Shown: positions 9,207-29,081, counted from the first letter of the stretch. The stretch: DNA of 32,000 bases from Desulfocapsa sulfexigens DSM 10523 (GCF_000341395.1 NC_020304.1:2640001-2672000); one strand, 5' to 3'. Notes: generated by a model from the letters alone, not told the origin. A program made the numbers and translations.

Positions 9207-9337
9207 CAGAGAGTGGAGAAGGCAGGTATTATCCAGATTGACGCTTTTCCTTGAGTCCGTCTGAAAAAGGATCACAGTGGGTGTGGTACAGGATAAGAAA
9301 GCCCCTGTTTTTAGTAACAGCTACTGCCTTAATGATT

Positions 9338-9502
9338 CCTGATTACCATCGAAACTCAGCTTTGCAACCCGGAGTTGTTCCGTGTCGATTATATGGGACG
9401 CCATAAACCCATCCCTGGAGGCTCTGCTGCGGCCGTCCAGGCCGCAGATGCCCATATAATCAACACGAACTAACTCCTCCTCAGACGTTAGTGGTAATCA
9501 GG
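9338..9502. mobile_element. MITE-like non-autonomous element, copy A (165 bp)
   Basis: Perfect 11-bp terminal inverted repeats CCTGATTACCA (9338-9348) and TGGTAATCAGG (9492-9502). A perfect 8-bp direct repeat TAATGATT flanks it (9330-9337 and 9503-9510). The interior is roughly 90% identical (aligned by eye) to the reverse complement of 22053-22237. It has no credible ORF. Confidence 0.75.
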
Positions 9503-9617
9503 TAATGATTTGTTGATGGATGTAATTCAAGGCCTCCAGTTGCATGCGTTCTTTTCAGCTGATCAATGTCACCAAGCGGAAAGAACCCATACTTCGGGAA
9601 TAAACAATAAAAAAAGG

Positions 9618-20154: not shown

Positions 20155-20291
20155 CCAGGGAGTGATGTTACTCGTCAAACAACTTCTGTTGTGCTACAAG
20201 TAATGTATTCATTGTTCATTCTGATGGAAATATACTCTTATAGCTAAGCTTGCAAAAAAGGATGTGCTCCCTCAAACACAGGTTGAAATTT

Positions 20292-22049
20292 ATGTTTGTA
20301 CAGAAGAGATCATCAAGACTGGCCCGTTTTTTTCCCTTCCTGAGCTGGCTTAAGGGATATAGCTCTCAAGAGCTGCGAAGCGACTCTCTGGCAGGACTGA
20401 CAGTTGCTGTGGTGTTGATACCACAGTCAATGGCCTATGCCATGCTTGCAGGCATGCCTCCTGTTTATGGGCTGTATGCGGCCGCTGTAACTCCTGTCAT
20501 AGGAGCGCTATGGGGCAGTCTGCGCCAACTTGCAACCGGGCCTATTGCAATCATGAGTCTTCTGGTTCTCACAACCCTTACTCCCCTCGCTGAACCCGGA
20601 TCTGCGGATTATATTTCTCTGGCTTTTACCCTCTCTTTCATGGTGGGATGCCTCTATCTTTTTCTCGGTACCCTTCGCATGGGATTGATCATGTCCTTTA
20701 TCTCCCATTCTTCCGTCAAAGGTTTTACTGCAGCCGCTGCCCTTATCATCATCTCCACCCAGCTTCCGCATCTCTTTGGTATCTCTGTTGGAAAACATGA
20801 GTACATCCTGCCCATGCTGGTTAATATTGTCCGGGAACTTCCCAGTTTGAATCCTTATACCTGTGTTATGGGGATCGCGGCCCTGATTCTCATCTCTTTC
20901 ATCAAGCATGTTAACAGAAATTTGCCGGCAGGATTGATTGCCCTGGTGATAGGTACTGTGATGGTCATCGTGTTTGATCTTGATCAGAAGGGAATCGCAG
21001 TTATAGGTGCAATACCGGTTGGTCTGCCCAGCTTTAATCTTCCCCTGGTCAGTTTTGAGATGCTCAGCAAACTTGCAGGACCGACAATGGTGATTGCCCT
21101 GGTGAGCTTTGCGGAGACCTATTCAGTAGGGAAGGCGATATCAAGTCAGACCAAACAGAAGGTGAATGTCAATCAGGAACTGATTGGTCAGGGGTTGGCC
21201 AATTGTATCGGATCTTTCTTCTATTGCCCCCCGGTAAGCGGCTCCTTTTCCCGTTCCGCCATTAATTTTGCCGTTGGTGCAAAAACTGGCGTCTCCAGCA
21301 TCTTATCAAGCATTATTGTTGTTCTGTCTCTGCTTTTCCTGACCCAGCTTTTCACCAGTATTCCTAAGGCGGTACTCGCCGCCCTGGTCATTAATGCCGT
21401 ACTTCTCCTCTTTAATCCAAAAGAGGTCTTTGCCCTTTTAAAGAAAAACCGGCATGACGGTATTGTAGCTGTTACCGTATTTATTATGGGACTGGTCATC
21501 AAGCCTGATTATGCACTGCTTCTCGGGGTCATGATGTCGCTTATCTTTTTCCTCTGGAAAACCATGCACCCGGTTGTTGTCAGGATAACCAAGGATCCTG
21601 AATTGAACATGTTTGTTGATGGTGATCTGATGGATAAACCTGACTGCCCGCAGATCCTGCAGTTACGGATAGACAGTGAAATCTATTTCGGGAATGCCCA
21701 GTTTCTGGTGGAACTCATTAGCGAGCGCTTGGATGCATTGGTAGCGCCCATTAAATTTTTGATTCTTGATTTTCAGGCAGTAAGCTTTGTCGATCTGACA
21801 GGAATTGATGAACTCAGACTGCTCCTGGAAGAACTTGACACGAGAGGGGTCCGGCCTGTCTTTATTAATATCAACCCGCCCGTTCAGAAGGTATTTGTTT
21901 CTTCAGGATTGTCTGCAGATATTGATGCAGAAATGATTTTTGATGGAAAAGGTACGGCAACCAGAAAAATTTTCCCTATTCTTGATCATGATTACTGCCG
22001 TGAGACCTGTTCGATTGCTCTTTTTAATGAGTGCGAAACCGTGAAATAA
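20292..22049 (+). CDS. SulP-family anion (sulfate/bicarbonate) transporter with a C-terminal STAS domain
   Basis: The N-terminus FPFLSWLKGYSSQELRSDSLAGLTVAVVLIPQSMAYAMLAGMPPVYGLY is the SulP signature region, and the C-terminal ~130 aa are STAS-like. The start is ambiguous (TTG 20250, ATG 20262, ATG 20292). I chose 20292 from the typical N-terminal length. Confidence 0.88.
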   Translation: MFVQKRSSRLARFFPFLSWLKGYSSQELRSDSLAGLTVAVVLIPQSMAYAMLAGMPPVYGLYAAAVTPVIGALWGSLRQLATGPIAIMSLLVLTTLTPLAEPGSADYISLAFTLSFMVGCLYLFLGTLRMGLIMSFISHSSVKGFTAAAALIIISTQLPHLFGISVGKHEYILPMLVNIVRELPSLNPYTCVMGIAALILISFIKHVNRNLPAGLIALVIGTVMVIVFDLDQKGIAVIGAIPVGLPSFNLPLVSFEMLSKLAGPTMVIALVSFAETYSVGKAISSQTKQKVNVNQELIGQGLANCIGSFFYCPPVSGSFSRSAINFAVGAKTGVSSILSSIIVVLSLLFLTQLFTSIPKAVLAALVINAVLLLFNPKEVFALLKKNRHDGIVAVTVFIMGLVIKPDYALLLGVMMSLIFFLWKTMHPVVVRITKDPELNMFVDGDLMDKPDCPQILQLRIDSEIYFGNAQFLVELISERLDALVAPIKFLILDFQAVSFVDLTGIDELRLLLEELDTRGVRPVFININPPVQKVFVSSGLSADIDAEMIFDGKGTATRKIFPILDHDYCRETCSIALFNECETVK

Positions 22050-22052
22050 AAA

Positions 22053-22237
22053 CATGATTACTACAAATCCTCAGCCTACCCGCCTGAGGAGGATTTCTTT
22101 TCGTGTTGATTATATGGGCATCTGCGGCCTGGACGGCCGCAGTAGCAGTAGAGCCCCCAGGGATGGGTTTATGGCGTCCCATATAATCGACACGGAACAA
22201 CTTTGGGTTACAAAGCTGATTTTGGATGGTAATCAGG
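22053..22237. mobile_element. MITE-like non-autonomous element, copy B (185 bp), inverted relative to copy A
   Basis: Terminal repeats are CATGATTACTA (22053-22063, matching the consensus at 9 of 11 positions) and TGGTAATCAGG (22227-22237). A perfect 8-bp direct repeat AATAAAAA flanks it (22045-22052 and 22238-22245). The left copy contains the sulP stop codon TAA (22047-22049). Confidence 0.75.
22069..22101 (+). terminator. Terminator-like hairpin carried inside MITE copy B, just downstream of sulP
   Basis: CCTCAG-CCTACCCGC-CTGAGG (22069-22089) is followed by AGGATTTCTTTTC. This segment is partly deleted in copy A. Confidence 0.4.
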
Positions 22238-22356
22238 AATAAAAAAGAACAACAAACAGCGATGAGCGGGGGGAGAAGAGCCGCCAGGACTGGCATTTCG
22301 GGAGCAGATCATAATGATGAAGCTTTTTTTCTTTGTTGAAGTGCATGTGAAACTGT

Positions 22357-23115
22357 TTATTGAATAAGCCTTTTTCGTATGAGAAAGATAGCCACCTGGC
22401 AGGTAAAAAATGTAAGGACAGACAGTCCTATTAGTTTTACAAACCATGGCTGATCAAACTGGCCATAGCAGAGCATGCGAGACAATGTAACAAAGGGAGT
22501 GAGGGGCAGTAATTCAAAAAATATTCTGACTCTTTCAGGAATGGAATGGAGTGAGAAGAAGATCCCTGAAAAGAGAAAGAGAGGTGTAAGGACAAGAGAA
22601 ATAAAGTAGTTGAAGAATTCATAATTGGTAGCAAGGGCGGTCATGATGAGCCCCAAGGCAGCAAAAAATATCCCGGAAAGGAAAAGTAATGGTAGCAGGG
22701 TAAGGGTCCATGGAGAAGGCCAGACACCAAAAAGTGGCAGGGCTGCAAGCATGATGATACCGGACAACAAACCTTTGCTGGCCCCCCAGAAAATCTCACC
22801 GAGAACTATATCGGTAACCCCAAGCGGTGTAACCAGGATGGCCTCATAAGTCTTTTGAATTGTCAGCCGGGTATAGGCACCATATGTTGTTTCAAAGGCG
22901 GCGCTGTACATGACCGAGGAGGCGGCGAGGCCGGGAGCGAGGAATTGCAGATAGGTCAGGCCTTCAATGGTTCCTACTTGTTTGCCAAGTCCGTAGCCCA
23001 TGGCCAGCAGGAAGAGCAGAGGTTGTCCCAGGTTGCCTATCAGGGTCGAAGTGATGTGCTTACTCCAGACCAGATTGTTACGCAGCCAGACTGTCCGGAA
23101 GCGAAAAAAGGTCAT
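22357..23115 (-). CDS. ABC-2 type transporter permease (NodJ/DrrB-like)
   Basis: 252 aa with six TM segments and an ABC-2 family pattern. It overlaps the upstream ATPase gene by 4 nt. Confidence 0.88.
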   Translation of the reverse strand: MTFFRFRTVWLRNNLVWSKHITSTLIGNLGQPLLFLLAMGYGLGKQVGTIEGLTYLQFLAPGLAASSVMYSAAFETTYGAYTRLTIQKTYEAILVTPLGVTDIVLGEIFWGASKGLLSGIIMLAALPLFGVWPSPWTLTLLPLLFLSGIFFAALGLIMTALATNYEFFNYFISLVLTPLFLFSGIFFSLHSIPERVRIFFELLPLTPFVTLSRMLCYGQFDQPWFVKLIGLSVLTFFTCQVAIFLIRKRLIQ

Positions 23116-29004: not shown

Positions 29005-29081
29005 TGGTACACCCAGTAGGATTCGAACCTACGACTCCCGGATTCGAAGTCCGGTGCTCTATCCAGCTGAGCTATGGGTGC
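29005..29081 (-). tRNA. tRNA-Arg (anticodon UCG), CCA encoded
   Basis: The reverse complement is GCACCCA TA GCTC AGCTGGATA GAGC A CCGGA CTTCGAA TCCGG GAGTC GTAGG TTCGAAT CCTAC TGGGTGT ACCA. This is a 77-nt cloverleaf with the anticodon loop CU-UCG-AA and a G1-U72 wobble. Confidence 0.93.

Follow-up and report, generated by a model that had tools for sequence, protein, structure and literature searches.

The window analysed here is a stretch of 32,000 nucleotides from Desulfocapsa sulfexigens DSM 10523 (NC_020304.1, 2640001-2672000). Its plus strand carries, at positions 20292-22049, a gene of the SulP/STAS sulfate permease family (sulP), identified from the ORF list, from Pfam and as the called gene on record. 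The ORF can be read as 599 or 585 amino acids. The longest version opens at a TTG at position 20250, and the 585-residue product from the start at 20292 is that of the called gene. Pfam recognizes Sulfate_transp (2.3e-99) together with STAS. The last codons are GTG AAA TAA, the stop being located at 22047-22049. The nearest SulP relatives belong to Desulfocapsa-like MAGs. More broadly, relatives of 57-77% identity are collinear with the C-terminus and share a common end position (...EC..(L/V)K, then the stop). Because the C-termini match, that of SulP is native, in agreement with the earlier proposal that the insertion described below left the protein unchanged.

Downstream, on the minus strand and convergent to sulP, the ORF list and Pfam place an ABC-2 permease gene at 22357-23115. 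The two genes are separated by a spacer of 307 bp, within which a small repeated element is inserted. A 90-aa ORF with an ATG start is also listed on the minus strand at 22024-22296, where it spans the entire element. It is most likely spurious, an annotation artefact that would probably recur at other copies of the element. A shortened form of it is called as a gene at the end of a contig in a public assembly (L001).

Anatomy of the two copies

The element in the spacer, copy B, is 185 bp long (22053-22237, plus strand). Its orientation is that of the family consensus, as defined by an alignment of 30 copies and by an nhmmer search with the 178-bp consensus (E=3.5e-44). It opens with CATGATTACTAC on the left and closes with GATGGTAATCAGG on the right. 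The flanking sequence shows a perfect target-site duplication of 8 bp, AATAAAAA, at 22045-22052 on the left and 22238-22245 on the right. The left duplicate includes the sulP stop, so that the junction lies 3 nt past the TAA. The left terminal inverted repeat (22053-22065) is degenerate, as had been noticed earlier, with two mismatches to the consensus (CATGATTACTACA versus CCTGATTACCACT); the right one (22225-22237) agrees with the consensus.

Just inside the left repeat, a sub-terminal hairpin, CCTCAG-N9-CTGAGG, occupies 22069-22089 (arms at 22069-22074 and 22084-22089). The arms are followed by AGGATTTCTTTTCG; AGG precedes a T-rich run, ATTTCTTTTCG, at 22093-22103, and the local fold of the region 22069-22103 is predicted at -10 kcal/mol. 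The core (22100-22197) folds into a long stem, with arms at 22100-22118 and 22178-22197, that encloses two small hairpins. One of these, CTGCGGCC-TGGAC-GGCCGCAG, is located at 22122-22142. A tandem duplication, GCAGTA-GCAGTA, at 22139-22150 is private to copy B in the alignment. Promoter scans detect no promoter-like sites within copy B.

A second copy, copy A, was identified by alignment and nhmmer on the minus strand at 9338-9502. It is 165 bp long and its ends are CCTGATTACC/GGTAATCAGG. On either side, at 9330-9337 and 9503-9510, stands a perfect duplication of 8 bp, which reads AATCATTA on the minus strand. Copies A and B are reverse complements of each other, and the inverted-repeat arms are 90-98% complementary. 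A private 13-bp deletion has removed the 5' arm and the loop of the sub-terminal hairpin from copy A, in which only the 3' arm is kept (CGTCTGAGGAGGAG). The first-pass annotation had described this pair of copies, the duplication overlapping the stop and the missing arm of copy A in the same terms, and the element ends that it had chosen coincide with those given by the 30 aligned copies.

A family of small mobile elements

The family consensus measures 178 bp. Its terminal inverted repeats are 13 bp long, and its A+T-rich target duplications 8 bp. At least 30 distinct insertion sites were found in two JGI metagenomes, with 32 distinct left junctions, and an exact 20-mer of the core is present in 39 further contigs from the two metagenomes. 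Searching with the consensus (nhmmer) yields full-length copies, copies truncated at contig ends and a few internally deleted copies. Two such derivatives retain both ends: L029 7915-8020 (about 105 bp) and L041 2027-2174 (about 148 bp). Moreover, short-read contigs carrying identical sulP and ABC-2 genes break off within copy B, as contigs commonly do at a repeat.

The terminal repeats read CCTGATTACCAC(T) and (A)TGGTAATCAGG; over 10 bp, 86.6% of the cells pair across copies. Target duplications are perfect (8/8) at 11 of the 17 scored sites and match at 6-7 of 8 positions at the remainder. Duplications of this kind, together with the recurrence of the core in 39 contigs, put the anatomy of the two window copies well outside chance. 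Their sequence varies from site to site, and their A+T content reaches 85%, versus 54.6% for the window. The element is dispersed in many copies and is shorter than about 500 bp. Apart from the spurious 90-aa antisense ORF it has no coding capacity, and no transposase gene lies inside it. Its size, its terminal repeats, the fixed 8-bp duplication, the copy number and the lack of coding capacity thus identify it as a MITE.

Several properties of the family are shared with bacterial MITEs such as Correia/CREE of Neisseria and MITEAba12: a length of 100-200 bp, terminal repeats, a fixed duplication and no transposase, tens of copies found mostly in intergenic positions near genes, a strong predicted tendency to fold into hairpins, and some copies that fuse to ORF ends or shorten them (PMC10969869). 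The present family differs from known MITEs by its 8-bp A+T-rich duplication, by the absence of sequence similarity to the records searched, by insertions that are markedly over-represented within about 10 bp of stops, and by a terminal repeat that contains stops in two frames. Correia elements, for instance, use a TA target duplication. No match to an exact 21-mer of the core was found among the GTDB species representatives (one genome per species), and blastn with the consensus found none in plasmid and phage collections. On these searches, the family appears to be previously uncatalogued, and no sequence relative could be detected beyond its own lineage.

The search for an autonomous partner, which combined terminal-repeat matches with repeat pairs spaced 0.6-3.5 kb apart, found none with matching terminal repeats in 362 kb of sampled sequence. 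One candidate, L023 1506-4832, was rejected, as it sits within a 499-aa ORF. Since neither such a partner nor copies outside the lineage were found, we infer mobilisation in trans, and the anatomy of the element would fit a transposase of the DDE type. Encoded elsewhere, this enzyme would recognise the terminal repeats of about 13 bp (CCTGATTACCAC/T). A staggered cut of 8 bp would then be made in an A+T-rich target, and repair would duplicate these 8 bp; at the locus studied here, the target would have been AATAAAAA, which overlaps the sulP stop. Staggered cleavage followed by duplicating repair is how DDE transposases work.

The aligned copies are not equally variable along their length. The core (alignment columns 100-146) shows 2% non-consensus positions, versus 10.6% for the left end (columns 1-48) and 4.3% for the right end (columns 147-186), a uniformity that is partly due to subfamily variants and to the use of an exact core 20-mer for picking the copies. 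It is not predicted by simple neutral decay, and a constraint on the core is possible.

Two observations concern the flanks. About 35 nt adjoining copy A (window 9503-9540, including an identical AATCATTA) resemble the corresponding sequence of three metagenome copies, L013, L008 and L016. The match is 15/16 nearest the element, and the farther flanks are unrelated. This suggests either a repeated short target, for example another small repeat, or an insertion hot spot. In addition, one copy has the same left flank but different right flanks in L008 and L013, which come from the two metagenomes, and L008 lacks a matching duplication. This mismatch would be explained by recombination between copies of the element or else by a chimeric assembly.

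Insertions at stop codons

The position of copy B raises the question of how the family is distributed relative to genes. Junctions were surveyed using naive ORF calls (stop-to-stop, at least 100-110 aa), which also served for the null expectation. Within 60 bp of the 3' end of a gene lie 10 of 32 distinct left junctions and 8 of 27 distinct right junctions. Either end of the element can thus face the gene: it is the hairpin end 10 times and the opposite one 8 times. Twelve junctions fall in the interval from -15 to +10 bp around a stop. Since 8% of the A+T-rich 8-mers that lie outside ORF interiors are equally near a stop, this corresponds to a roughly fourfold excess. Most of the ORFs adjoining these stops are real genes with complete Pfam domains (TilS, Fur family, FAA hydrolase, NUDIX, Na/H exchanger, MetW and alpha/beta hydrolase).

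In four cases, namely sulP, the alpha/beta hydrolase gene, tilS and the Fur-family gene, the stop is inside the target duplication. When the stop belongs to the 8-bp target, the left duplicate keeps it, and SulP was therefore preserved automatically. In five other ORFs (those of L038, L032, L039, L009 and L010), reading continues into the element and terminates on a stop of the terminal repeat, either TGA at positions 3-5 (CC-TGA) or TAA at positions 13-15 (...CAC-TAA). Because the repeat (CCTGATTACCACTAA) has stops in two frames, TGA and TAA, genes whose stop was struck are re-terminated. The FAA hydrolase, NUDIX, Na/H exchanger and MetW proteins thereby gain 1-5 extra residues. For the Na/H exchanger, the element landed within the original TAG and split it, so that the protein is one codon longer and ends on the TGA of the repeat. 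The one mildly unusual feature of the family is that insertions at stops are in excess and that the terminal repeat itself contains stops. Landing at stop codons likely reflects a preference for A+T-rich targets together with the harmlessness of such sites.

The sulP insertion is thus typical of the family and not special. It is also found in another strain, with flanks 97.6% identical to those studied here, at the same place and with the same duplication, without the 6-bp GCAGTA duplication. As it is common to both strains, the insertion is old and fixed in the lineage. Between them, the element has diverged by about 1.7% substitutions, versus 2.4% for the flanks. No empty sulP site was recovered among the closest relatives examined (76-77% identity). 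These carry a co-directional gene downstream, and not the convergent ABC-2 gene, which makes them unusable as empty sites.

The practical consequences concern mainly annotation: the element breaks short-read assemblies, yields the spurious 90-aa ORF and changes the C-terminal codons of several real genes.

The hairpin and the sulP transcript

The sub-terminal hairpin had been regarded as an acquisition of copy B, with about 20 extra bp completing it. The length of the difference holds, but it is composed of the 13 bp deleted in copy A, the 6-bp GCAGTA duplication of copy B and 1 bp, an extra base in the T-run of copy B; the 13 bp alone concern the hairpin. In the 30-copy alignment, 27 copies extend over the left end, and CCTCAG-N9-CTGAGG is present in 26 of them; the exception is copy A. 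Copy B has therefore gained nothing, and it is copy A that has lost part of the structure. On the alignment of copies, which the first-pass annotation had itself proposed as the way to settle ancestry, the hairpin is ancestral to the MITE family and copy A is the deviant. The idea that copy B carries something special is not supported, since the hairpin belongs to the family consensus.

Its origin may lie in the element from which the family derives. Hairpins and terminators that face inward at the ends of insertion sequences shield the transposase gene from outside transcription. By analogy, the hairpin and T-run of the MITE, which stand just inside one terminal repeat and read inward, were probably inherited from the end of a parent insertion sequence; copy A has lost the module by its 13-bp deletion. 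Any effect on the sulP transcript, be it termination, stabilisation or cleavage of a structured 3' UTR, would then be a by-product. It is very probable that copy B is an ordinary MITE insertion by the sulP stop, with a family-wide hairpin and such a by-product at most as its effect on the transcript. The sulP copy itself is probably a neutral insertion.

Alternatively, copy B may be a domesticated mobile terminator, as had been put forward at first: its hairpin and U-run would end the sulP transcript, and the insertion would have been kept for this reason. The hairpin does lie in the sense orientation, 20 nt past the TAA, and combines a G+C-rich stem of 7-8 pairs with a 9-nt loop. However, UUUCUUUU, which follows it, begins 3 nt after the minimum-free-energy stem, and T occupies only 4 of the first 8 bases behind that stem. 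An alternative, bulged stem would bring CUUUU directly behind the hairpin. On the sulP strand, neither a terminator scan nor a stricter custom scan calls the copy B hairpin. Other members of the family fold more stably: consensus hairpins are predicted at -13.5 to -14 kcal/mol, and a CC-variant (ACTCCTCCTCAG...CTGAGGAGGAGT) reaches -22.4 kcal/mol, with a perfect 12-bp stem and a U-rich tail directly behind it. Yet among the full versions of the hairpin that of copy B is the weakest, and the module is a property of the family that was not acquired at sulP.

Retention of the insertion in two strains that differ by 2.4%, and the two mismatches in the left repeat of copy B, which may render it immobile, could also be taken as signs of a resident put to use. 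Selection on the hairpin should then be visible, but there are no compensatory changes, no bias of orientation relative to gene ends (10 versus 8, as given above) and no excess conservation. No pair of the hairpin is changed on both sides, 6 of 12 depart through unpaired cells alone, and the stem is frequently broken among copies. Over all helices, the observed covariation values equal those of shuffled controls. Moreover, a candidate native terminator of sulP, composed of a weak A+T-rich hairpin and TTTTTTTCTTT (T7), persists downstream of copy B at about 22300-22335 on the plus strand. The custom scan finds it with or without the element, and it is conserved in the related strain L015. Terminator-like motifs occur in the window at about the frequency expected by chance, so that sequence alone predicts little about termination here.

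A precedent for terminator-like small repeats exists with SPRITE of S. pneumoniae (PMC3049150; reviewed in PMC10969869), a small dispersed repeat that likewise combines a hairpin with a T-run. In the present family, which is known from sequence, the module differs in being minor and sub-terminal, within a larger element endowed with terminal repeats and a target duplication, and its stem is often broken. In view of these data, domestication as the sulP terminator is unsupported at the sequence level, and the mobile-terminator account as a whole is improbable; termination of sulP by the element, taken by itself, is also unlikely. Should copies prove to end transcripts, the family would offer a clear natural case of terminators dispersed by transposition.

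The structure might instead act in the 3' UTR without termination. REP/BIME and Correia-type repeats have been reported to protect mRNA or to undergo cleavage by RNase III. A near-palindrome of 185 nt, present in transcripts that read through from sulP or from the ABC-2 gene, could similarly shield the mRNA from 3' exonucleases or be cut by RNase III. Copy B sits between convergent genes, and its two strands are predicted to fold at -76.7 and -74.6 kcal/mol (z=-5.2 for copy B as oriented here and -6.6 for the opposite strand). Across copies, 97.8% of the cells of the long core stem are paired, but without covariation, and the structure is a DNA-level result of the inverted-repeat architecture. 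Such a role, proposed from predicted folds, has a low probability.

A broader proposal extends these ideas to the whole family, which would be adapted to gene ends: it would prefer sites within about 10 bp of stops (about 12 of some 35-40 sites), re-terminate genes and provide a portable terminator that is in use in the sulP copy. We consider this combination doubtful.

Finally, it is very unlikely that the core encodes a small RNA related to TwoAYGGAY (RF01731, CsrB/CsrC clan CL00106), a proposed CsrA binder (PMC4333381): copy B has a like architecture, in which a long outer stem surrounds two hairpins with GGA loops (UGGAC and CAGGGAUGG), but its score of 26.7 bits (E=0.02-0.05) is below the Rfam gathering threshold of 43, the loops vary among copies and covariation is absent. 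Membership is largely refuted by the copies that resemble the consensus: L031 gives no match at E<=10 and 12 other loci give none, which means that the match depends on the 6-bp duplication private to copy B. The likeness is thus a resemblance, not membership.

Elsewhere in the window, the segment 16453-16506 matches, at 81% identity, the 5' two-thirds of a tRNA-Arg(TCG) located at 29005-29081 on the minus strand. The segment itself is called as a tRNA by neither ARAGORN nor Rfam. The segment may be a tRNA fragment or a pseudo-tRNA, and possibly an old integration scar, beside an 858-aa amino-acid-permease/SLC12-like gene.
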